From: Patescibacteria group bacterium
GTDB taxonomy: Bacteria > Patescibacteriota > UBA1384 > XYA2-FULL-43-10 > 1-14-0-10-43-13
Direction of reading: 5' to 3'
DNA length: 64,000 nt
Assembly (NCBI GenBank): GCA_041649155.1
Contig: JBAZNP010000001.1
Coordinates: forward strand, 67,581-131,580
The notes beneath the pieces were generated by a model. It was not told the origin of the DNA and made no database searches. It saw only the letters and a list, made by a program, of their open reading frames with translations. How positions within the stretch are numbered: the first letter of the stretch is position 1; the number at the start of each line of letters is the position of its first letter. Positions 12,959 to 50,732 of the stretch are shown here, piece after piece. Position numbers and translations under genes: made by a program.

Positions 12959-13651
12959 TTAAGCAGTCGGCCCTTGATTTGCTAGTGCTAAGCTAGCGCC
13001 CCAAGTGGGGTTGAGTTGTTCGATCAATACACTGAAGCCACAGGATCCAGGATCTCCGCCTCCTTCCACATAATTCCGGAAGATAACCGAAGGTTCAATA
13101 ACTTTGAAGCCGTAGTTTCCCAAAACTCTGAGTTCAGGGTCAAGCGGCCTTCCATTGCGCTGACTATTTACATATTTTTCGGGACTCATCTTGTCCTGAA
13201 AACGATGATAGCCAGGCATTCGGGTTATAAACCTGCATCCGCGCTTCCTCTCTGCTACTGCGTAGCCGAATAGGTAGCTGATCAGGCACTCGGTCATGCC
13301 GGCTCGACAACCTTTAGATGTTACTGCGAGGCCAACTCCATGAAGCCATTCACCGTATGGGTTATGAGTCCTTGTGATGTGGCCAGAATCAGTCGCTTCG
13401 TTCCATGTGGGGCAGAGTATGAGATTGTCATTTGCAAGTTGCACGGAAACATAGCCTTCAATGTTGCCATCGATCTCACCAACAACAATTCCGCATTCAG
13501 GGAATGTTGTGATGCGATCAATAAACATCTGCTCATTTCCTTGCCAAATGCTCTTCCATGCTTGGTCACAAACTCGAATGACATCATCAACATCGGTCAC
13601 CACTGCGGGTCTTACTTTCATGTTCATTTTACACCTCTGTCTCCACCGCAT
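12959..13651 (-). CDS. GNAT-like N-acetyltransferase (weak), GC-elevated and divergent from the peptide/rSAM pair
   Basis: …HGVGLAVTSKGCRAGMTECL… resembles the GNAT motif A (R/Q-x-x-G-x-G/A). GC is clearly higher than in the flanking genes. Confidence 0.4.
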   Translation of the reverse strand: MRWRQRCKMNMKVRPAVVTDVDDVIRVCDQAWKSIWQGNEQMFIDRITTFPECGIVVGEIDGNIEGYVSVQLANDNLILCPTWNEATDSGHITRTHNPYGEWLHGVGLAVTSKGCRAGMTECLISYLFGYAVAERKRGCRFITRMPGYHRFQDKMSPEKYVNSQRNGRPLDPELRVLGNYGFKVIEPSVIFRNYVEGGGDPGSCGFSVLIEQLNPTWGASLALANQGPTA

Positions 13652-13838
13652 TGGTGGGATGTCGTTCTTAGTATCTCAAGTTGCCTAATTATGGAGGCAG
13701 CCCGAGTTACCTGGACATTACTTTGTCCAAGCTTTTCTGCTGCCATAGGCAACTCCTTTCAGTTTTCAATGTACTCTAAGCTCATTATACTATATACAAT
13801 AGCGAAGATGTGTTGTATTCTACCACAATTACTCTTAT

Positions 13839-13882
13839 TTGTCAATCGTAGTGTTGACAAAATCGTCATTTAGTGATATTAG
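13839..13882 (+). promoter_or_regulatory. Sigma70-like promoter (TTGACA, 17 bp, TGaTATTAG) overlapped by a perfect inverted repeat TTGTCAA-N8-TTGACAA. This is a candidate operator.
   Basis: Read directly. The -35 box sits inside the right arm of the palindrome, about 50 nt upstream of the peptide ORF. Confidence 0.4.
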
Positions 13883-13932
13883 TATTATAGAATTGCTGGT
13901 TGCAATTCAAAAACTGCAGTAGGAGATCTTCT

Positions 13933-14028
13933 ATGAAAAGAAAGTTCCGCATCCTTAATCGTGGTAACGCCTCAGTTGTCGTTCTGACGAAGGAATCCCA
14001 AGGCGTCATGTATTACCGGGGCCAGTAG
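13933..14028 (+). CDS. Candidate RiPP precursor peptide (31 aa, MKRKFRILNRGNASVVVLTKESQGVMYYRGQ), not in the ORF track
   Basis: ATG 6 nt after an AGGAGA RBS. It lies directly upstream of, and co-oriented with, the RRE-rSAM gene, with a terminator-like hairpin between them. Confidence 0.5.
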   Translation: MKRKFRILNRGNASVVVLTKESQGVMYYRGQ

Positions 14029-14055
14029 TCCCATGGGCGTAAGCCCAGCCAACCT

Positions 14056-14092
14056 GGCGAGGCTGATTCCGATCACGCCTCGCCATTTTTTT
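14056..14092 (+). terminator. Intrinsic terminator/attenuator hairpin (ggcgaggc…gcctcgcc followed by 7 T) between the peptide ORF and the rSAM gene
   Basis: 8-bp GC stem with a T-tract. This precursor-then-leaky-terminator layout is typical of RiPP operons. Confidence 0.55.
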
Positions 14093-14111
14093 CAGAAAGG
14101 GAGCTATTTAG

Positions 14112-15542
14112 ATGAACGTGAGCCTGTCTGAAAAGCCATCGATCGATTATCGAGGCGATTTAGCAGTGGTGATATTCCCTTCTAAACCTTACTGGTTCTC
14201 TGCAACAAAAGAAATTGCAGATATCCTCGAAGCCTTTGAATTAGAGGAGGAAGGTAAAATCACCAGCAGTATCGCAGACAGTTTACAGGTCTCTGTAGAA
14301 GAAGCAAGAGAAATCTATGCAGAGACTACGGATCTGCTTTATTCGTCCGGTGTATTATCTATAGATGGAAGGTACGCCAAGACAACAGAGTTTGCGCCAA
14401 ACTTCCAAGTCAATGATGTCGAAAACGTGCTTGTCATCGCTACTACTCAGAAATGCAATATGGAGTGTGAGATGTGCTATGCACACGCAAGAAAACCACT
14501 TCCCAATGAGATGGCAACGGGAGAAATCAAGACTATTATCGATCAACTCTCCGAAATGCCTTGGCAAAACGGTATTTCTCGCGTTGCTTTGACTGGTGGA
14601 GAGTTGTTTACCCGTCCAGATGCTATCGATCTGATTGGTTATGTCCACGAGCATGGATTCTTTGCTCAAGTGAATACCAATGCGACTTTACTTGATGACA
14701 GTCAAATCAAAAGGCTTGCCGAGTTTCCGCGACTTAAAATGTCGATTTCGCTAGATGGCTGCAGGCCCGAGACACATGACTTCATCAGAGGCGCAGGGGC
14801 ATTCGATACAACCGTCCGGAACATTCGCCTGCTATGTGAAAATGGCGTGTCGGTAGCGATCAACATGTTTGTTCATCGGGACAACATTGGAGAGATCAAG
14901 GAAACACTTCTTCTGGCTGATTCATTGGGAGTCGAAGGGTTTAATTGCCTGAATATGATGAACGTTGGGCGAGGAAATAGCAAAAAGGCAAAACGACTCC
15001 TAGTCGCAGTTCCAGTAGCAGAATTCTATCGCAAGGTTTTTGACGCCGTCCGCGAAGATCATCGGTTGCAAAAGCTGATGATGAATTCCACTTTTGCCAA
15101 TCAACTCATGGGAATTGCCGGAGGAGTTAAGAGCTTCGGTTGTGGAATAGGCACTAACCGAGCTGTCTACGTGAAAGCCGATGGCTCTATCTATCCCTGT
15201 GCCGATACTGCTTTACCGGCATTTCGCCTAGGAAACCTACGCACTGACAGTATGTCTGAAATTTGGGAGAATTCGCCGATCTTAGAGAAGCTTCGCTCTC
15301 TTAATATCGACACCATGAATCCAAAATGTTCGGCATGCGATGTTCGGTATCTCTGTGCGGGCAACTGTCGCGGAGAGAATTATCAGACAACCAAGAATAT
15401 AAAAAGTCCCCATTTCAAGTGTGACGAGATACATACCTCCATCCTCGAGTTGATGTGGATCCTTACCGAAGAGCCCGATCTCTTCAAGTGTAAAGTTGAC
15501 AACCTTTATGCAACAGTGAACTCACATGCTTCAACAGCATAA
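14112..15542 (+). CDS. Radical SAM/SPASM-domain peptide-modifying enzyme with an N-terminal PqqD-like RRE domain
   Basis: CNMECEMC (CxxxCxxC) at about residue 115. A C-terminal Cys-rich SPASM region (CGIG…YPC…CSACDVRYLCAGNC…KC). The first ~95 aa resemble the PqqD/RRE fold pattern. RBS AAAGGGAG. Confidence 0.8.
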   Translation: MNVSLSEKPSIDYRGDLAVVIFPSKPYWFSATKEIADILEAFELEEEGKITSSIADSLQVSVEEAREIYAETTDLLYSSGVLSIDGRYAKTTEFAPNFQVNDVENVLVIATTQKCNMECEMCYAHARKPLPNEMATGEIKTIIDQLSEMPWQNGISRVALTGGELFTRPDAIDLIGYVHEHGFFAQVNTNATLLDDSQIKRLAEFPRLKMSISLDGCRPETHDFIRGAGAFDTTVRNIRLLCENGVSVAINMFVHRDNIGEIKETLLLADSLGVEGFNCLNMMNVGRGNSKKAKRLLVAVPVAEFYRKVFDAVREDHRLQKLMMNSTFANQLMGIAGGVKSFGCGIGTNRAVYVKADGSIYPCADTALPAFRLGNLRTDSMSEIWENSPILEKLRSLNIDTMNPKCSACDVRYLCAGNCRGENYQTTKNIKSPHFKCDEIHTSILELMWILTEEPDLFKCKVDNLYATVNSHASTA

Positions 15543-25857: not shown

Positions 25858-26159
25858 ACAGAGCACTGGTCGGTCTTGCATTTCAATGTGAGACCGACCC
25901 AACCTTGAGCCCCCATCCGCCAGTCGGTAGTTCGAGGCTTGAGCGTTGAAAAATGTTCTTCTCCTTATTAAGGAGAAGTTAGATGAGGTAAAATTATCAT
26001 TCCCAATATCTCCCGCGAGTCAAAGCTAGAAGTAAGTTATTAAACTAAGTACTCAAAGCTTATCGCTAGCTTGACTCACAGGAAATAGTTTTTCCATGAT
26101 GAGAAGCCTACTGACTAAAGTCAGAGGCGCGGCTAATACCCGCAAGAGGATAAGGGAGA

Positions 26160-26786
26160 ATGCTTCGTCTGATTAAAGTTATTGGATTAAGTTTGGGCTT
26201 CATGGTCGTTGTCTGCGGCCTTTTCGCCGTAGCGGCTCGCGCCGACACCAACGACCCAGTCGGCTGGAAAGTAGTTTTCAGCCTCAGTTGTTCCTCTGGA
26301 ACAGTTGAATTCGGGGCCAATGACGCCGGCTCTGGCTATGCAAGAGGATTTGTAGACGGTCCAGTAAGGATGGACCGTGAAGCTGGATATACCAGCATCA
26401 TCCATCTTGGGGCAAACACAATATTTCAAGAAAATCTGATAATCGAGCCCCAGGCAAACGCTCCGGACAGTTTTATCCTAAGTTGGACAACCTTCAACTG
26501 GGACAAGGATTGGTTGTATCGGCCCGGAAATATCGGTCGGTCGATTTACGGCCGACTGCCGATACCTGGAGAAGCTGAGCGATGGCTTGATCTGTCCAAA
26601 TCCGGAAGCACAACTCTTGGCAGCAGCAACCAGTGGTATCACTACGCAAATGGCGATCCGCTGCTTCAGATGCCAATTTTCGCCAATCAGGCTGTTCCCG
26701 AGCCTAGCAGCATTTTTGCCTTAGGCGGCGGATTTGGAGCTATGCTCCTTCGCCGCTATCGTTTCAGAGCTTGGTCTAGAAAATAG
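26160..26786 (+). CDS. PEP-CTERM sorting-domain protein (putative exosortase substrate)
   Basis: N-terminal signal peptide. The C-terminus reads …VPEPSSIFALGGGFGAMLLRRYRFR, i.e. PEP motif, TM segment and Arg cluster. GC is well above the window average. Confidence 0.75.
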   Translation: MLRLIKVIGLSLGFMVVVCGLFAVAARADTNDPVGWKVVFSLSCSSGTVEFGANDAGSGYARGFVDGPVRMDREAGYTSIIHLGANTIFQENLIIEPQANAPDSFILSWTTFNWDKDWLYRPGNIGRSIYGRLPIPGEAERWLDLSKSGSTTLGSSNQWYHYANGDPLLQMPIFANQAVPEPSSIFALGGGFGAMLLRRYRFRAWSRK

Positions 26787-26805
26787 GACTAAGCCAAGAT
26801 CAAAC

Positions 26806-26836
26806 GCCTACCCCGAAGGGGTGGGCGTTTTTCTTA
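26806..26836 (+). terminator. Intrinsic terminator (cgcctacccc-gaag-gggtgggcg followed by ttttt)
   Basis: GC-rich stem plus T-tract. Confidence 0.6.
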
Positions 26837-26876
26837 TTGATTTTTTGATCAATAATTGTTATAATTCATTCATTGC

Positions 26877-26953
26877 GGGGTCGTAGTTCAGTTGGTTAGA
26901 ACGCCACACTGTCACTGTGGAGGTCGCCGGTTCGAGTCCGGTCGATCCCGCCA
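26877..26953 (+). tRNA. tRNA-Asp (anticodon GTC)
   Basis: GGGGUCG acceptor, loop CUGUCAC, T-loop TTCGAGT, CCA encoded. Confidence 0.8.
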
Positions 26954-27057
26954 GTAAAAAACCGTTAGTGCATTGCAAATGTACTGGCGGTTTTTTATTG
27001 CTATTTTTGCAAATTATTGTTATACATGTAGCGAGATTAGCAAAGGGGGCATGTGAC

Positions 27058-42886: not shown

Positions 42887-43420
42887 ATGCGAATGTCGAA
42901 AAACCAAAAAAATGTGCTAAAAATAATTGGCAAGAGCATTGTTCTAGCATCGGCACTGTTTGCTCCAAATATTATCCAGATAATGAGACCTAAAAATGCC
43001 AGGGAGAAATACAAGCACAGCAGAACTATCAAAAAGCTTTTTGATGATGAAATTATATACCTGTTCGGCGAAGAAATAAGGCTGACTAAAAAAGGGAAAG
43101 AATTGCTTGGCGTTATTCAGATTGAGGACATTCAAATATTCCCAAAAGATGAATGGAATGGAGTCTGGCATATAGTTTGTTATGATGTGCCAGAAGGCAA
43201 AAAGACAGCCAGGGATTATTTTCGAGCGAAGTTAGCTGAGGTTGGTTTTAAGTTTATTCAAGACAGCATGTGGGTTTATCCATATGAGTGCAAAGAGGAA
43301 ATCGCCATTATCTCTCAAAATCTGGGCATTGCCCCTTTCGTTGCGTACCTTAACACCGACTATCTACCCCAACAAGAGAGGCTAATTCGTCACTTTCAAC
43401 TCAAAAAAAAGAATCTATAA
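42887..43420 (+). CDS. Membrane-anchored protein with a PaaX_C-like (Cas2-fold) domain
   Basis: …WNGVWHIVCYDVPEGKKTARDYFRAKLAEVGFKFIQDSMWVYP… matches the W..W.(I/L)V.(Y/F)D(V/I)PE…R…L…GF…Q.S(V/M)W pattern of PaaX C-terminal/Cas2-like domains. An N-terminal TM segment precedes it. Confidence 0.45.
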   Translation: MRMSKNQKNVLKIIGKSIVLASALFAPNIIQIMRPKNAREKYKHSRTIKKLFDDEIIYLFGEEIRLTKKGKELLGVIQIEDIQIFPKDEWNGVWHIVCYDVPEGKKTARDYFRAKLAEVGFKFIQDSMWVYPYECKEEIAIISQNLGIAPFVAYLNTDYLPQQERLIRHFQLKKKNL

Positions 43421-44961: not shown

Positions 44962-45025
44962 AGAAATTTACTCAAATATTTTCAAAAATCCTAATTTTGT
45001 GCTTGTGAAAAAACGTCCCCTAAGC
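44962..45025. repeat. R-repeat copy 2
   Basis: See 44325-44385. Confidence 0.45.
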
Positions 45026-45214
45026 TCCACTTTCGGTTTCTGATTTTTGTTTATGTTCCTTACAGTTTTCACAATTAAATATCTCGTCTCTATGAAATTC
45101 GTGGTTGCATTTTGGGTATTTATAAACCGTTTTTGATTCAAAAATTGTACCTGGTGCACCATCATTTTTTTCAAGTTCTACTTCGCTAAGGTATATGCAA
45201 TCTTTCTTATACAT
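45020..45214 (-). CDS. 64-aa zinc-ribbon-like small protein
   Basis: Cys/His cluster C…CNHEFH…CENC. RBS AGAGGA. Confidence 0.45.
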   Translation of the reverse strand: MYKKDCIYLSEVELEKNDGAPGTIFESKTVYKYPKCNHEFHRDEIFNCENCKEHKQKSETESGA

Positions 45215-45228
45215 GCTTGTCCTCTATT

Positions 45229-45393
45229 TTAATTTTTTTCTATATCTAAATATTCCAGATCGTTTTTATATTCTGGTTTGGTGTCACCATTATCGTAAAC
45301 AAAATCAAGAATGTGAGTTTTCGGATTCGCCCATGATTCAATTTCACAATGCCCAATCACTCCGTCACTATTTTTAACTTTCACTGAGACCAT
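45229..45393 (-). CDS. 54-aa hypothetical small protein
   Basis: GGAGGG RBS 5 nt upstream of the ATG. MVSVKVKNSDGVIGHCEIESW… Not in the ORF track. Confidence 0.4.
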   Translation of the reverse strand: MVSVKVKNSDGVIGHCEIESWANPKTHILDFVYDNGDTKPEYKNDLEYLDIEKN

Positions 45394-45412
45394 AATTACC
45401 CTCCAAAAATTA

Positions 45413-45577
45413 CTATAATAATTTTTTAATATTGCTTAATTCACATTTATTAGTATGGACGAAATCGATCATTCCACATGATGGACATTTTAATGTTGAG
45501 TCACCTCTTTCTCCATTAGTCTGAAAATCAAGACTCTCTTCGTGTAAATAATCTTCGTACTCTTTATTTAGCTTCAT
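45413..45577 (-). CDS. 54-aa zinc-ribbon small protein (CPSCG…C)
   Basis: AAGGAG RBS 5 nt before MKLNKEYEDY… The track's longer N-terminus is rejected. Confidence 0.45.
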   Translation of the reverse strand: MKLNKEYEDYLHEESLDFQTNGERGDSTLKCPSCGMIDFVHTNKCELSNIKKLL

Positions 45578-45731
45578 TTTTCTCCTTTTTTGCGAAAAAC
45601 AATTCAACCATTTAACTATTCAACAAGTTAACGGACCCATTATGCCAAACATACCCCAAACAGAGCAAGTTGTTTTCTTATCGCCAAAACCGTATTTAAT
45701 AGAAAACCGTCCCCTAAACTACTTGTTCACC

Positions 45732-46367
45732 CTAGAATTTCCCTTCAATTTTAGATGTTGTCCTTTTGACATTTATATTGCCGTGGCGACCTCTTTCTCT
45801 CGGATTATTAAAATAATTTCCGTTTAACTCACTGCCTCTGTTGAGTATTGCTAGTAAAGCAGTGCCAGTATGATCCCTCATATCATCGTCAGGTGCAGGT
45901 GCTGAAGTTCTATTCTGATATACGTATACCAATTCATGGTTCTCGTTGTTGTTCCGGCATATGTTGGCAATTAGGTTATAAGAACCGGACCTCTGAGTGT
46001 AAAGATTTACTTTAATAGAAGTTAAGCTTTGTTTGATTTCAATTACGGTTGGGTATTTTGTTTTTTCCTTGTCGTAACTGCTAGTGAGAAAGCCCTCGTA
46101 TCTACCGTTAACATTTGGGATTCCAACCAATTTTTTTATTAAAGGAAGTTTCCATAAATAAACATTAAACAGCCAAAAGAAAAGCAACAAAATCAATAGT
46201 GTCGTTGGAGCTTCAAACAAACCGAAAGAATAAATTTTGTAAAGATAATTTTCGTGCGGTAATTTTTCTATCCAAAAAATTAGACCTGACGATACCCATG
46301 ACGCTGGGGCAGTAAACACGACACAAAAAATAAAATAAAATTTACTCGTTAGGCGGAATGGCTTCAT
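45732..46367 (-). CDS. CBASS-type effector: two N-terminal TM helices plus a beta-rich C-terminal domain (Cap15-like)
   Basis: Two hydrophobic helices in the first 80 aa, then a polar beta-rich domain. It lies 11 nt downstream of the SMODS cyclase gene. Confidence 0.55.
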   Translation of the reverse strand: MKPFRLTSKFYFIFCVVFTAPASWVSSGLIFWIEKLPHENYLYKIYSFGLFEAPTTLLILLLFFWLFNVYLWKLPLIKKLVGIPNVNGRYEGFLTSSYDKEKTKYPTVIEIKQSLTSIKVNLYTQRSGSYNLIANICRNNNENHELVYVYQNRTSAPAPDDDMRDHTGTALLAILNRGSELNGNYFNNPRERGRHGNINVKRTTSKIEGKF

Positions 46368-46378
46368 AAATCTCCCTG

Positions 46379-47242
46379 TTAAATATTAAAGGCTTTGTCC
46401 CAAGCAGTTACAGCTTCTTGAGCCGTGGTTGCCCTATAGGCAGCTAGGCTTTGCACTAAAGAACTAGCAAGAGTATTTCTGAATAATTGGCTATCCCAAT
46501 TATTTGTAATATGTTCAGTGCCGCAAACGCTTGGCACTTGAGTTTCCTGTGCTAGTGATTCTAAAATATGGCTCCCAACCAAAATGAATGAACTAACATG
46601 GTCGTTGGCGAAATTTTCATTGGGGGACGCATGAACCAGAGACTCTATTTGGTATGAAGAAACAACATCCGCATCCCCAAAATGATTTTTTGACCAATTT
46701 TTAAACATTCGAACGACAGGCTTAAAGTTTTCATTAGTTTTATTGTGTTTTTCCGCTCCATTTTTGATGTGAGTGCGAGGACTGTTAACTTTTTCCAAGC
46801 CGGTTTTGAAGGAATATATGGCAATGGGATCCGTCATTATGTCATGGGTGATTTTTACTGCGGGGACAACGTCTGCCTTAAATGTCGATGTTGAAACTTC
46901 TATGCATTTCCCGCTATCGCTTCGTTTTATAGTCCAGTCATAACGATTTTGATTCTCGAGTTTTTCCTCGATTTCTGCAAAAATACACTCCCATGCTATG
47001 CTAGTTGGACAGACTATTCCAGAATGAACACTGCTAAAAGTATCTTTTCGTATGGCGACAATATCAACATCATTGATATCTGAAATCGAGGTATCGTTAG
47101 CATAAGATCCCTGTAGGAATGTTTGATGGTCGACGAGTAATTCTTGGATGTAGTTTTGAAGATTGGCAACTTCTCTCCGTTTTGTATCAGAGATGCTTTT
47201 TGTATGTTTTAGAACATGCTGAACAGGCACATTGTGAGTCAT
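46379..47242 (-). CDS. SMODS-domain nucleotidyltransferase (CD-NTase-like cyclic-oligonucleotide synthase)
   Basis: LQGSYANDTSISDINDVDIVAI fits the GS-x(10)-DxD pattern, with a third acidic residue in …FKADVVPAV…. RBS GGGAGGGAG. Confidence 0.7.
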   Translation of the reverse strand: MTHNVPVQHVLKHTKSISDTKRREVANLQNYIQELLVDHQTFLQGSYANDTSISDINDVDIVAIRKDTFSSVHSGIVCPTSIAWECIFAEIEEKLENQNRYDWTIKRSDSGKCIEVSTSTFKADVVPAVKITHDIMTDPIAIYSFKTGLEKVNSPRTHIKNGAEKHNKTNENFKPVVRMFKNWSKNHFGDADVVSSYQIESLVHASPNENFANDHVSSFILVGSHILESLAQETQVPSVCGTEHITNNWDSQLFRNTLASSLVQSLAAYRATTAQEAVTAWDKAFNI

Positions 47243-47259
47243 TGCTCCCTCCCTTTCAA

Positions 47260-47904
47260 TTAAATTAGTTTCGGTTTTTTAATGACTTGGATGACTTTAC
47301 CGCAGATAGAATAGTTTTCCATCTCATCAATTCCAATAAATATTGGTGGAAAGTTTTTTGTTGACTCTGGCATTAAGACGATCTGTTCGTTTTCTCTGTC
47401 TTCGAAATACTTTTTTATATTTGCCATGCCATCAATTATGGAAACAATGTAGTCCCCATTACGAGGTTGCTGATACTCCGAATCAACGACAACATAGTCG
47501 CCATTTTCGATGTTTTTATCGCCGTTAACCTTAGCCTTGTTCATCGAATCGCCGGATGCTTCAAGGATAAAAATATTCCTGGTTTTGGTTAACAACTTTT
47601 TTGATACCTTAAGGTACCCTTCGACATAATTGTCTGCAAAATGAGTAGCGAATCCGCAATCTGCTGCGCCATATATTGGCAGAGACAATAAACCCTCGGA
47701 ACTTTCGGAGAGTTTTTTAACTACATCAATCTTTTTAGAATCAGGATTATATTTAACAAGACCTCTTTTTTCCAGCTGATCAAGGTGATGTTTTACATTT
47801 TGTGGGTGGTTAATCCCTGCCAGAATACCAAGCTGTCTCAGGGTAACATCCCCAATTTTATTGTCAGTTAAAAGTTCTAACAGTTTTTTTTGTGTTGAAT
47901 GCAT
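47260..47904 (-). CDS. LexA-like repressor (wHTH plus S24 peptidase)
   Basis: N-terminal winged helix (…RQLGILAGINHPQNVKHHLDQLEKRGLV…). C-terminal S24 fold with an ASGDSM nucleophile motif and a downstream Lys. Confidence 0.75.
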   Translation of the reverse strand: MHSTQKKLLELLTDNKIGDVTLRQLGILAGINHPQNVKHHLDQLEKRGLVKYNPDSKKIDVVKKLSESSEGLLSLPIYGAADCGFATHFADNYVEGYLKVSKKLLTKTRNIFILEASGDSMNKAKVNGDKNIENGDYVVVDSEYQQPRNGDYIVSIIDGMANIKKYFEDRENEQIVLMPESTKNFPPIFIGIDEMENYSICGKVIQVIKKPKLI

Positions 47905-48098
47905 TAATTCTCCTTATGGTTCAATTATAGCAAACTAAACATTATCTGTAAAGTTATGTTATCTATTGACAGACTATTAGTTTTTAAAATAAACTGAAAA
48001 TTAAGAGGTCGCTGAGTTAGCATTTTTACATCTAACTTGGAGGTGGACAGCGTTTGGTCGGTCCTCAGATTATCAGTAATTCAAAGGAGAATTGAAAG

Positions 48099-48383
48099 AT
48101 GTTATCCAATGGATTTTCAGCTGAGATTGTAGAAAAAGTTTGGCAAAAAGGTTTAATTGTCTTGGGACAAAACTCCAACCTTATGCGCAAAGATGCTTGT
48201 GGCGCTTTCATAAAGAGAAATCTTTATGGGGTAAGGGATGGGCAATCTGGCAATGGTTGGGAAATAGACCACATTGACCCGAACGGTTCCGACGATCTCA
48301 GTAACCTTAGGCCGTTACAATGGTACAACAACGTTACCAAAAGTGATGGTGTGTTAAAATGCGCAGTGAGAGCTAGTGCTTAG
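48099..48383 (+). CDS. HNH endonuclease (small)
   Basis: …EIDHIDPNGSDDLSNLRPLQWYNN… is the HNH motif. 94 aa. Confidence 0.7.
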   Translation: MLSNGFSAEIVEKVWQKGLIVLGQNSNLMRKDACGAFIKRNLYGVRDGQSGNGWEIDHIDPNGSDDLSNLRPLQWYNNVTKSDGVLKCAVRASA

Positions 48384-48390
48384 CGCAACC

Positions 48391-48425
48391 AAAAAGCAGG
48401 TGGGTAATTTGCCTGCTTTTTGAAT
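48391..48425 (+). terminator. Intrinsic terminator (aaaaagcagg-tgggtaatt-tgcctgcttttt)
   Basis: Perfect stem plus T-tract. Confidence 0.65.
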
Positions 48426-48860
48426 TCAAATATTAATAATTACAAACCAAAAAACAAAAGATAAACCGGCAACAAAACTTAGCCAAAAAAGCCAAAAAAA
48501 GAACACATAAAATATGGTTTGTGCTTTACCCGGCTTCTTTTCTTCTATGAATTTTGTTGCCGTCATATATTCATGAGGTGATTTCTCGTAGTCCAATAGA
48601 AAATTTTGTTTATTCAGATCAATAATCGAAATTTCACTTAGCAAATACCTCATTACTATATTGCTAAGAGTGCATACCAATAGTGCAATCCATGCAGATT
48701 TTAGTAGATTTACCTCTACTGGAGTTTCAAAGTAATTCAAAAGAGATAGGCTTGATACTAGGGCGCCAGCAGAGATTGTTAATATTGCGTTAAACAAGGC
48801 ATCCCTATTCGTCATGACCATTCGCCTTGATAAATTGAGTTCTTTATACCTCTCGTCCAT
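48426..48860 (-). CDS. hypothetical membrane protein
   Basis: 144 aa, 4 TM segments. Confidence 0.45.
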   Translation of the reverse strand: MDERYKELNLSRRMVMTNRDALFNAILTISAGALVSSLSLLNYFETPVEVNLLKSAWIALLVCTLSNIVMRYLLSEISIIDLNKQNFLLDYEKSPHEYMTATKFIEEKKPGKAQTIFYVFFFWLFWLSFVAGLSFVFWFVIINI

Positions 48861-48863
48861 AGG

Positions 48864-49142
48864 TTAAACAATCTTGTTAATCTCTTTCATAATTCTGTCT
48901 GTTTCAGCAAGAGCAATGATTATCTTTTGGTAATGCTCAATATCTTCGGAATTTAATGTTCTATTTTTGCGGTCTTTAAGCCACTTTTGAGCTGGTTGAT
49001 AGCCACCAATATAAGAATTCCATGCAGCTTCTGGAACATTGCCAAAATATTGACTACCATTTATGTAGACTCTGACGGCGCTAAACTCAATTTTCTTAAT
49101 TCCCTTGATCATTTTTGCAAAACATGAAAGAAAAAATCTCAT
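48864..49142 (-). pseudogene. C-terminal remnant of a Type IIG/Type ISP restriction-modification enzyme
   Basis: …VPEAAWNSYIGGYQPAQKWLKDRKNRTLNSEDIEHYQKII… matches the conserved extreme C-terminus of Type ISP/IIG enzymes. About 90 codons remain, with no catalytic domains. Confidence 0.55.
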
Positions 49143-49175: not shown

Positions 49176-49976
49176 TTAGATTATTACCTTTGCTTCTTCA
49201 TAAAGCATCGGCAAACAATTTTGCCTTAATCTGAATTTGGTACCGTGGTTATGGCCAGATCTGGCATCAAAATCCACAAGAACACAAGAATCTTCTATCG
49301 CCTTCAGGAAACCCTCAAAATTAAACTTCCTTAGCATCATAACTTTTGAATATTTATAGAACTCCCTTTTTCTTTCTGTCTTGACCTCAGCTTGAACATA
49401 AAAACAGTTAAGCAACTTGGTTCCAGCTTTATGTTTAAGATCATCAAAACCCCAGTAAGGTTGTGGGTCTAGTTCCTTGAACCCTATTTTTTCTTTAACA
49501 GAATCTAGCCATGCCCTATGTTTATCGTCGACTTTAGATGAATCAAAAGATACTAAAATCTTTTGTTCTTTGCGATCCACCTTAACCATGAACCCCCTAT
49601 CGGTCGGAGCATTACCGTTTATTGTCTGCCTAAAACTCATCTCTTCCAGCGAATATTTTCCACCCGCTTCTTGATGGTTCCATCCGTACTTAGGTAACAA
49701 CATTTGTGCGACAAAACCTACTGCCCTTGGCGATGGTTCCATGTGAAATAGAGTGGTTAGGGAACAGGTATTTAAACGCTGAGTTTTTAACTCCCACTCT
49801 GCAGCATTTGGAATTGGCAAATTATTTTCCTTGATACCGAGTAAATCTTCGAGAGTATTTCCTATGCCCCCACTATTTCCATGCCTTCCGTTTTTCACCC
49901 ACCCCATCTCAGAGATTTCTTTTAATCGCTTTATCAATGATTCCTTGGTATACAGTACTGGATCACTATTTTTCAT
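49176..49976 (-). CDS. MvaI/BcnI-family Type II restriction endonuclease
   Basis: GNTLEDLLGIKENN…AEWELK…TLFH..P block and the C-terminal …SGHNHG…LY pattern, as in R.BcnI/R.MvaI. Placed directly downstream of an m4C methylase. Confidence 0.6.
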   Translation of the reverse strand: MKNSDPVLYTKESLIKRLKEISEMGWVKNGRHGNSGGIGNTLEDLLGIKENNLPIPNAAEWELKTQRLNTCSLTTLFHMEPSPRAVGFVAQMLLPKYGWNHQEAGGKYSLEEMSFRQTINGNAPTDRGFMVKVDRKEQKILVSFDSSKVDDKHRAWLDSVKEKIGFKELDPQPYWGFDDLKHKAGTKLLNCFYVQAEVKTERKREFYKYSKVMMLRKFNFEGFLKAIEDSCVLVDFDARSGHNHGTKFRLRQNCLPMLYEEAKVII

Positions 49977-49982
49977 AATTCC

Positions 49983-50732
49983 TCATATATTTAATGTTGC
50001 TTGAGCAGTATGTCTTTTAATTCTTTTTTTAGACATTTCGCAATATTCAGGAGAAATATCAATGCCGATATAATCTCTTTTAGAATTAATTGCTGAAATG
50101 GCAGTTGTGCCAGAGCCCATAAAGGGATCCAGAATGACTTTGGCACTTGTTGATGAAACGATACGGTCGATTAATTTAACTGGAAAAGGCGCAGGATGGC
50201 CATTTCTCATTTCTTGAGTAAACTCCCATATATCGCCATAAGCATTTACCTTTGGGGCTAGCTTGAATTTGGGTTTAGCAATTAGATAAATTACTTCATA
50301 GGTAGGCAAGAAATAGCCAGCATTAAAATTTAGTCCGCCTTTTCTTCTCCAAATAATAATTTGTCTAACAGGAAAACCAACAACAATATCTTGCCTGTCT
50401 TGCAATAATCCTGCCTGAACTCGCCACTTATGGTTATAAAAAATGGCTCCAGTGTCGGGAATGATTCGTAACATTTCCGTTAAACAATCTCTTTGCCATT
50501 TCACATACTCCTCATGCGGCATACAATCATCATGATTTGTGTAACCATTTTGAAGTGCAGCATTGGCCCACTTACCACCTCGTCCATCTTTCATTCCATT
50601 ACCAGTGGAATTTTTTAGATTATATGGCGGAGAAGTCACAATTAAATCAACAGCTCCATCAGGAATCTGCTTCATTATTTCAACCGCATCACCACAAACA
50701 ATTTTGTTTAAAAAGTCTTCTGGATAGTTCAT
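49983..50732 (-). CDS. DNA N4-cytosine methyltransferase (beta-class, SPPY)
   Basis: DLIVTSPPYNL (motif IV) precedes FMGSGTT (motif I). Confidence 0.8.
   Translation of the reverse strand: MNYPEDFLNKIVCGDAVEIMKQIPDGAVDLIVTSPPYNLKNSTGNGMKDGRGGKWANAALQNGYTNHDDCMPHEEYVKWQRDCLTEMLRIIPDTGAIFYNHKWRVQAGLLQDRQDIVVGFPVRQIIIWRRKGGLNFNAGYFLPTYEVIYLIAKPKFKLAPKVNAYGDIWEFTQEMRNGHPAPFPVKLIDRIVSSTSAKVILDPFMGSGTTAISAINSKRDYIGIDISPEYCEMSKKRIKRHTAQATLNI

Follow-up and report, generated by a model that had tools for sequence, protein, structure and literature searches.

Does a LexA-like, self-cleaving repressor control an anti-phage system? The question is raised by a locus of three genes in the stretch of DNA that we analyzed, 64,000 nucleotides (hereafter the window) from the genome of a Patescibacteria group bacterium (contig JBAZNP010000001.1), where a gene for a protein with a winged helix-turn-helix (wHTH) and an S24 peptidase domain is directly followed by the cyclase and effector genes of an anti-phage system that signals through cyclic oligonucleotides (CBASS). 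An earlier note, made from the sequence of the window, had described three minus-strand genes with gaps of 17 and 11 nt and had offered two explanations, a DNA-damage-responsive mode of CBASS control or a fortuitous linkage to the housekeeping LexA of the cell. By open reading frame (ORF) calling, the three co-oriented genes lie exactly where they had been placed (coordinates of these and other features are in Table 1). From the evidence below, we favor, with moderate confidence, the reading that the locus is an operon of a LexA-paralogous repressor and a type I CBASS, which came from the immunity region of a phage or phage satellite and is derepressed by a damage-type signal.

Judging from gene families and active-site residues, the cyclase and the effector are a type I CBASS, as had been proposed; the family matches of all three proteins exceed chance by a wide margin. 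The 287-aa cyclase, a cGAS/DncV-like nucleotidyltransferase (CD-NTase), matches the PADLOC profile 'Cyclase' (E=1.5e-26) as well as NCBIfam CBASS cyclase models, and among proteins of solved structure CdnE enzymes are nearest to it (6e0k, E=2.7e-13), a group whose members make pyrimidine-containing dinucleotides. G45, S46, D58, D60, and D124 are invariant among 52 homologues, and the catalytic Asp triad (D58, D60, D124) is complete. The identification as a SMODS/CD-NTase protein therefore stands, while the motif given for it, GS-x10-DxD, has to be corrected to GS-x11-DxD. The profile searches that the earlier note had suggested gave strong matches to Peptidase_S24 for the first protein and to Cap15_CD_rec for the effector (E=4.6e-23), whereas the SMODS score of the cyclase, 25 bits, is just below the Pfam gathering score of 26.5; its precomputed Pfam match is CD_NTase_C. 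The 211-aa effector also matches the PADLOC '2TM effector' profile (E=2.1e-48) and the Cap15 structure 7n34 (E=5.8e-5), and has two hydrophobic helices (residues ~12-31 and ~50-72), consistent with the Cap15-like layout described before. We assign the pair to type I because a CD-NTase is combined with a Cap15 effector and no Cap2/Cap3 (E1/E2/JAB), HORMA/TRIP13, or other ancillary signaling genes were found nearby, either in Pfam and PADLOC scans of the neighbors or among precomputed Pfam matches within 10 kb on each side.

The 214-aa product of the first gene is LexA-like over its whole length, and the wHTH-plus-S24 description of it holds. It matches Peptidase_S24 in Pfam (E=2.9e-20) and LexA crystal structures (E=5e-10), in an alignment spanning LexA residues 27-197, in which C83-G84 takes the place of the A84-G85 cleavage site, S120 that of S119, and K164 that of K156. 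None of these four residues (C83, G84, S120, and K164) varies among 32 homologues, in which the winged-helix segment HPQxIKHHLxQLEKKGL is also strongly conserved. Cys-Gly is the UmuD-type cleavage site, and we refer to the proteins that share it here as the Cys-Gly family. The score against the LexA DNA-binding domain (PF01726, LexA_DNA_bind) is 16.8 bits, compared with a gathering score of 23.7, and some of the homologues have a precomputed PF01726 match. The NCBI name of the protein is only 'S24 family peptidase', and its S24 domain matches phrog_4 'transcriptional repressor' and the phrog_6201 repressors. We also compared the protein with the regulators known from similar places. The wHTH-WYL-WCX architecture of CapW/BrxR is absent, since the protein has only Peptidase_S24 and weak helix-turn-helix (HTH) matches in Pfam; Pfam scans of the locus revealed no M78 or HTH_3 protein of the kind that forms a CapH/CapP pair; and the protein is not of the phage CI type, its N-terminal domain being a LexA-like winged helix rather than HTH_3, with no phage genes in the window.

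The likeness to LexA raises the possibility that this is simply the housekeeping LexA, the sole SOS repressor of the cell, with a downstream site that accepts insertions. Such an explanation would suit the full-length alignment to TIGR00498 lexA (88.3 bits), the LexA label that JGI gives to some members of the family, the conserved chromosomal context of one subclade (S24-MscL, 13 loci), and the highly variable cargo downstream of the family as a whole. However, the TIGR00498 score is below the equivalog cut-off of 110.95, and a search with the LexA domain of a related locus (L032; loci are given by our own numbers) showed that canonical LexA is widespread in Patescibacteria as a separate family (PF01726+PF00717, ~196-205 aa, Ala-Gly site, NCBI name 'transcriptional repressor LexA'). 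We conclude that the S24 protein of the window is probably not the housekeeping LexA, and by its sequence we place it in a paralogous family, the Cys-Gly one. Its identity to the canonical LexA of Patescibacteria is 26%, as is that to E. coli LexA, and its closest relatives lie in phage-like elements and defense islands. An insertion hot spot alone would leave unexplained the constant co-orientation and operon-like spacing described below, and it would explain neither the second LexA-like family nor the CapH/CapP-like genes that we found in the same slot. We regard the housekeeping explanation as very improbable.

The arrangement of the three genes suggests one transcription unit. The spacers between S24 and cyclase (17 nt, TTGAAAGGGAGGGAGCA) and between cyclase and effector (11 nt, CAGGGAGATTT) each contain an RBS-like GGAG run (RBS, ribosome-binding site), and the very strong cyclase RBS pointed out previously is indeed in the first of them; the RBS of the S24 gene is AAGGAG at 47910-47915. 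The best promoter-like site within 45400-48500 is a near-consensus sigma-70-type promoter that precedes the start codon region of S24 by 20 nt. No terminator-like site is present in the 17-nt spacer, none of the three genes is followed by a terminator-like structure, and the RNA downstream of the effector gives no better fold than shuffled sequences do. Because no terminator was found after the effector, the transcription unit may extend into the small ORFs downstream. We count the operon-like spacing and the promoter as observed; the cotranscription of the three genes, and possibly of more, from one strong sigma-70 promoter is predicted from them.

The -35 hexamer of this promoter is overlapped by an imperfect dyad, TGTCAA-N13-TTTACA, which occurs once in the window. 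Between the window and L181, the locus with the nearest relative of the window S24 protein (75% identity), this block is conserved while the spacer between the -35 and -10 hexamers has diverged. From its position, the dyad is a reasonable candidate for an operator placed to occlude the -35 hexamer. Dyads and repeats are also frequent in front of related S24 genes. Direct repeats of GTCAA with a four-base spacing (GTCAA-N4-GTCAA) are present in 25 of 88 S24 upstream regions, compared with 0.0 in shuffles. The nearest relatives of the window have a TCAA-N4-TTGACA palindrome (10 of the 88; 0.33 when shuffled), with the -35 hexamer as its right arm; a -10-like element follows this palindrome by 16-19 nt in 9 of 12 cases examined. 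The clade of L003, L184, L185, and L017 has a TGTNNA-N5-TNNACA dyad instead, which is absent from the window promoter.

Other elements were noticed in the same upstream regions. The element 'CTGTGGATAAC', containing a DnaA-box-like TGTGGATAA, recurs in 34-38 of the 88 S24 promoters and in about none of the shuffled ones (in L092-L171, e.g. L122:800-911, L137:4890-5000); the window carries only a degenerate version of it, TAGATAAC. The divergent control region of the window also holds a perfect palindrome with 6-nt arms (AGTTAG-N11-CTAACT, 48015-48037), which is upstream of the S24 -35 hexamer by about 60 nt, and the region is enclosed by the two halves of an imperfect inverted repeat of 11 nt (47942-47952 / 48025-48035).

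The linkage of S24 and cyclase genes recurs in other genomes. Using a profile built on the cyclase clade, we gathered 79 loci in species-representative genomes and scanned them with hidden Markov models (HMMs) from our own alignments, and took the census on 21 distinct loci of the close, Patescibacteria-only cyclase clade, each with at least 900 nt of upstream sequence. In nine of the 21 (the window, L003, L014, L016, L017, L018, L019, L184, and L185), S24 is directly upstream and co-oriented, separated from the cyclase by 4-27 nt or by ~215-250 nt with one small DUF2188-type ORF, and in none is it downstream. The slot is occupied differently in others: one locus (L032) has a canonical LexA-methyltransferase fusion divergent from the cyclase, and two (L005/L022 and L030) have an HTH_3 plus Peptidase_M78 pair, resembling CapH/CapP, upstream of sister cyclases. 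A distant cyclase clade likewise has S24 upstream of it: this is seen in L066/L070/L085 and in L172, an IMG/VR viral contig and the one informative contig in our viral scan with S24; the scan of viral contigs with the cyclase clade returned distant relatives only.

Among the S24 proteins linked to CBASS, at least two LexA-like families are represented, with an identity of only 27-36% between them. Group A is the Cys-Gly family of the window; in group B, the winged helix is another one ('SPTLREINEVTG...') and the cleavage sites are A/C-Gly. Identity matrices and trees of S24 and cyclase are discordant. Group B S24 proteins that are 72-75% identical head cyclases just 27-30% identical, the window cyclase is 57-66% identical to cyclases whose repressors are 29-50% identical to the window S24, and the cargo of the nearest S24 relative, in L181, is not CBASS. 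On a neighbor-joining tree, the CBASS-linked repressors occupy at least five separate places. Because CBASS genes have been placed behind LexA-like genes repeatedly and convergently, and because a CapH/CapP-like pair can substitute in the slot, the comparison argues against a linkage by chance. Together with the separate canonical LexA of Patescibacteria, these results disfavor the fortuitous alternative of the earlier note, and the linkage of LexA-like genes to CBASS that it had proposed to look for in relatives is borne out by at least nine further distinct loci.

Two features of the related loci deserve mention here. In many relatives, a DUF2188-family gene (66-105 aa) lies between the regulator, whether S24 or CapH/CapP-like, and the cyclase; the window has no such gene and only the 17-nt spacer. 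The methyltransferase fused to LexA is of the N4/N6 type in L032 and of the Dam type in L051, in both cases divergent from a CBASS cyclase at 25-70 nt, and many homologues of these fusions in databases combine PF01726+PF00717 with PF01555 or PF00145.

Where the unit came from is suggested by the closest relatives of the cyclase, L184 (66%), L185 (62%), and L003 (61%), which share one compact element. One arm of this element encodes a serine recombinase, TerL (phrog_38, E=1e-81), TerS, a ParB-like methyltransferase, and a 117-136-aa protein; the other, divergent arm encodes S24, a small ORF, the cyclase, Cap15, and more cargo such as SIR2 or Ymh. In its gene layout, the element resembles a small temperate phage or a phage satellite, S24 holding the position of the immunity repressor and CBASS lying in the immunity operon. 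In L181, TerL/TerS/ParB-methyltransferase genes are followed by an MvaI/BcnI restriction-modification (R-M) pair, a small divergent gene, S24, and the non-CBASS cargo, and the R-M pair is 78% and 85% identical to that of the window; in L011, a close S24 relative is likewise beside TerL/TerS/ParB-methyltransferase genes. A tblastn search of the 64-kb window with TerL, TerS, ParB-methyltransferase, recombinase, and small-gene queries from L003, L181, L184, and L185 yielded no terminase or recombinase homologues and matched solely the R-M, S24, cyclase, and effector homologues. We read the module of the window as a repressor-cargo unit that is derived from such an element and was stranded in a chromosomal defense island.

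The same relatives lend themselves to another view of the regulation, modeled on lambda cI-rexAB, in which S24 would be, or would have been, the master immunity repressor of a temperate phage or satellite and the CBASS a lysogenic-conversion 'moron' riding on the constitutively active repressor promoter. The real targets of S24 would then be the leftward excision and packaging genes, CBASS would be on in the quiescent state, and cleavage of the repressor would bring no induction, or even shut-off. The two divergent arms in L184, L185, and L003, the neighbors of S24 in L181 and L011, the viral contig L172, and the phrog_4 match all accord with this view. Yet the S24 of the window is intact, with all its catalytic residues, although no TerL, TerS, or recombinase homologue is left in 64 kb for it to repress, and the promoter, with 11 of 12 consensus matches and a TG extension, should need no activator. 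These two points make us favor negative over positive autoregulation. The S24 family also heads cargo without visible phage genes in the flanks retrieved for L010, L191, and L192. As an account of the regulation in the window we consider the passenger view, though the most serious of the rivals, unlikely; as to origin, it is compatible with the explanation that we favor.

The cargo behind the Cys-Gly S24 family extends well beyond CBASS. We gathered 80 metagenomic loci with the S24 profile (46-63% identity) and counted the cargo in 70 distinct loci, from the metagenomes and from context look-ups, whose sequence continues for 600 nt or more downstream of S24. Of the 70, 48 have a co-oriented gene as the next one, no more than 200 nt away. 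At least 19 of these next genes belong to defense or R-M systems; the R-M and methylation cargo comprises Dcm (six times), Dam (twice), an N4/N6 methyltransferase with a PvuII-type enzyme, Eco57I-type enzymes (twice), MmeI, another type IIG enzyme, and Vsr plus Dcm, and the other defense cargo PDC-M41A, an HNH effector-like protein, Hypoth_Ymh/PD-Lambda-3_B, a ThsB-TIR-like protein, and CBASS. Another 15 are housekeeping genes: those for MscL, in one clade of 13 members that appears to be vertical, and those for a glycosyltransferase and an S41 peptidase. The remainder have no assignment. Within the S24 subclade of the window, which includes L191, L092, L192, and L182, a different CBASS, S24-SMODS-S_4TM, is present in L191 (S24 61% identical to that of the window), in an island with GmrSD and PLD genes (L191:5001-7550), and L092 has S24-SMODS. 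In L192 (L192:5001-7740; S24 60-61% identical), S24 is followed by an unannotated 376-aa gene and a 287-aa radical-SAM protein, with a diversity-generating retroelement (RVT_1, bAvd) and a HepT/MNT pair in the surroundings; the S24 of L182 is surrounded by Dcm/NgoFVII/Z1 and PLD genes. In the loci compared, the Cys-Gly S24 family is thus seen to head a swappable, mostly defensive cargo slot. More tentatively, and with somewhat less than even confidence, we propose that LexA-like S24 repressors (the Cys-Gly family, group B, and the LexA-methyltransferase fusions) are a further class of RecA-coupled regulators of immune operons, prevalent in Patescibacteria, with a modular slot that exchanges CBASS types, R-M, Dcm/Vsr, TIR-like, and other defense cassettes between phage satellites and chromosomes.

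In the regulation that we favor, a repressor dimer would bind the dyad over the -35 hexamer of its own promoter and keep expression of the operon low, at a basal level sufficient for CBASS surveillance. RecA filaments on single-stranded DNA (ssDNA), formed upon DNA damage or replication of a phage, would trigger self-cleavage at C83-G84; the promoter would be derepressed, and the levels of cyclase and effector would rise. Once phage is sensed, the cyclase would make a cyclic dinucleotide, to which Cap15 would bind and disrupt the inner membrane, resulting in abortive infection. S24 would thereby fill the role that CapH/CapP, CapW, or CapK/CapS have in other CBASS operons. For CapH/CapP, published results indicate that CBASS already protects when a damage-sensing repressor holds its expression at the basal level (10.1101/2022.04.27.489752). 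We infer autorepression, the DNA-binding site, RecA dependence, cleavage, and damage induction from the sequences. RecA-independent cleavage is reported for the LexA-like protein IrvR (PMC7101444), and such cleavage is also possible for the S24 of the window.

Several observations weigh against this reading. The only operator candidate in the window is the imperfect N13 dyad; the search for a LexA-box-like palindrome in 47905-48098 that the earlier note had called for turned up this dyad and no classical SOS box (CTGT-N8-ACAG, GAAC-N4-GTTC, TGTTC-N4-GAACA, and relaxed forms). The TCAA-N4-TTGACA palindrome of related S24 promoters is absent from that of the window, and the TTGACA-like repeats could be -35 elements of divergent promoters. 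In the phage-like relatives, S24 may primarily repress the leftward operon of the element. No recA gene lies within the window, and none of the 80 metagenomic S24 loci has the cyclase clade of the window behind S24. About 9 of the 21 members of the close cyclase clade have no recognizable upstream regulator, and weaker promoter-like matches, one within the S24 gene (47774..47746, 10/12) and one where that gene ends (47259..47231, 9/12, which is the chance level), mean that independent transcription of CBASS is possible. These last two points would be expected if the two units were independent, with a CBASS pair under its own internal promoter that happens to lie beside S24, both being common residents of defense islands and mobile elements. 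Promoter-like matches in the region are, however, just modestly above those in shuffles (14 vs 9.3 +/- 2.9). Independence would not account for the short or single-small-ORF spacers of the nine linked loci, for S24 being co-oriented and upstream in every one of them, or for the convergence of two LexA-like families on one position. Independent units are, in our judgment, improbable, and we retain the operon under a damage-responsive S24 repressor as the preferred reading.

The island in which the operon resides is bounded by queA and a PaaX-like gene. The position of the small divergent gene upstream of S24 is held by such a gene in most related loci, and the interval from the MvaI/BcnI R-M pair to the S24 locus holds a remnant of a Type ISP/IIG restriction enzyme and a multi-transmembrane (multi-TM) ORF. 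On the other side, the small Zn-ribbon ORF after the effector is possibly in the same transcription unit as CBASS. The residues encoded by 45416-45547 are 51% identical over 45 aa to the C-terminus of a 283-aa HNH-like protein that comes next after S24 in L094. We rejected the idea that the small downstream ORFs are a decayed copy of this L094 gene, as just its last 45 residues match. Elsewhere in the window, the first 27 kb contain eleven tRNA genes (3324-26953), and the G+C content is 0.45-0.49 at 13001-15000 and 26001-27000, compared with about 0.36 in the rest.

Table 1. Features of the S24-CBASS locus and its surroundings in the window, and features of related loci (prefixed with the locus number).
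Feature	Position	Strand	Size	Basis or remark
PaaX_M (Cas2-like central domain) protein	42887-43420	+	177 aa	far island edge
Small ORF	45020-45214	-	64 aa	co-oriented, 3' of effector, no terminator
Small ORF	45229-45393	-	54 aa	co-oriented, 3' of effector, no terminator
Small Zn-ribbon ORF	45413..45607	-	64 aa	CPSCG tail; no terminator between effector and ORF
Cap15-type effector: 2 transmembrane (TM) helices + cyclic-dinucleotide-receptor beta-barrel	45732..46367	-	211 aa	profile and structure matches
CD-NTase (CdnE-like CBASS cyclase)	46379..47242	-	287 aa	invariant G45 S46 ... D58xD60 ... D124
Cyclase RBS spacer	47243..47259	-	17 nt	strong RBS (GGGAGGGAG)
LexA-like wHTH + S24 repressor, predicted self-cleaving (Cys-Gly family)	47260..47904	-	214 aa	profile, structure, and homologue alignments
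Sigma-70-type promoter TTTACA-17-TATAAT + TG extension	47924..47952	-		11/12 match
Candidate operator, imperfect dyad TGTCAA-N13-TTTACA	47947..47971	-		overlaps -35 hexamer; single occurrence in window
Divergent HNH-like gene	48099..48383	+	94 aa	weak phrog_1035 endonuclease VII match; shares 194-nt control region
Multi-TM protein	48426-48860	-	144 aa	no family match; follows ISP/IIG remnant
Truncated Type ISP/IIG restriction enzyme remnant	48864-49142	-	92 aa	matches only last ~75 residues of C-terminal domain
MvaI/BcnI-type restriction enzyme + N4/N6 methyltransferase	49176..50732	-		profile matches; syntenic with L181
LexA-methyltransferase fusions	L032:4060-5925, L051:4210-5964	-		canonical LexA (Ala-Gly) in frame
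DUF2188-family genes	L003:5770-5997, L005:5701-5934, L085:5593-5853, L172:5652-5897 and others

How abortive-infection systems stay silent and yet ready is an active question. CapW, CapH/CapP, and CapK/CapS are three classes of damage-sensing regulators that have been tied to CBASS (for CapH/CapP, 10.1101/2022.04.27.489752). CBASS of the CdnE plus Cap15 kind, damage-sensing CBASS regulators, and defense genes in prophage immunity operons are all already known, and we found no published report of an S24/LexA-type regulator of CBASS or other defense cargo in the searchable literature, which omits most subscription journals. If our reading is true, a single-protein, self-cleaving switch of the LexA type would be a fourth and mechanistically simpler mode of CBASS control, wired to the sensing of RecA filaments, and it would give a first regulatory insight into immunity in the Patescibacteria (candidate phyla radiation, CPR), which have tiny genomes and no cultured phage-host models. 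The layout with S24 first and defense cargo second could also act as a genomic beacon for new defense genes, as several of the cargos are unannotated. The broader pattern, in which LexA paralogues and LexA-methyltransferase fusions would control swappable defense cassettes of the CPR, would be worth more if confirmed.

Compared with the characterized type I CBASS of CdnE and Cap15 (7n34; 6e0k/6e0m/7x4c), the pair in the window has the same two-gene core, with the GS...DxD...D residues, two TM helices plus a beta-barrel, and no Cap2, Cap3, or HORMA. It differs in that its proteins are very divergent (phmmer E=1e-13 and 6e-5), its host belongs to the Patescibacteria, and an S24 gene stands in front; from its own relatives it differs in the lack of the small DUF2188 gene. 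With LexA, UmuD, and phage CI, the S24 protein shares the Ser/Lys dyad and an X-Gly bond before the catalytic core, and its N-terminal winged helix resembles that of LexA; unlike LexA, it has Cys-Gly (as UmuD does) instead of Ala-Gly, no SOS box, and a family that sits on mobile elements or heads defense cargo. The arrangement of an S24 repressor followed in one operon by an abortive-infection system is shared with lambda cI-rexA-rexB and other defense genes in immunity regions of prophages or satellites, and the closest relatives are in elements bearing integrase and terminase genes. The differences are a wHTH of the LexA type in place of an HTH of the XRE type, CBASS as the cargo, and, in the window, the loss of the element, of which repressor and cargo alone are left. 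Finally, S24 occupies the same slot directly upstream of the cyclase as CapH/CapP, CapW/BrxR (wHTH-WYL-WCX), and CapK/CapS, regulators of CBASS and of other immune operons, presumably with the same logic of a repressor that is inactivated by a signal derived from DNA damage or ssDNA. In contrast to these, it unites DNA binding and predicted self-cleavage in a single polypeptide with no M78, WYL, or kinase domain, it is the first co-oriented gene of the operon rather than a divergent one, and its signal would presumably arrive via RecA filaments, not through direct binding of ssDNA.

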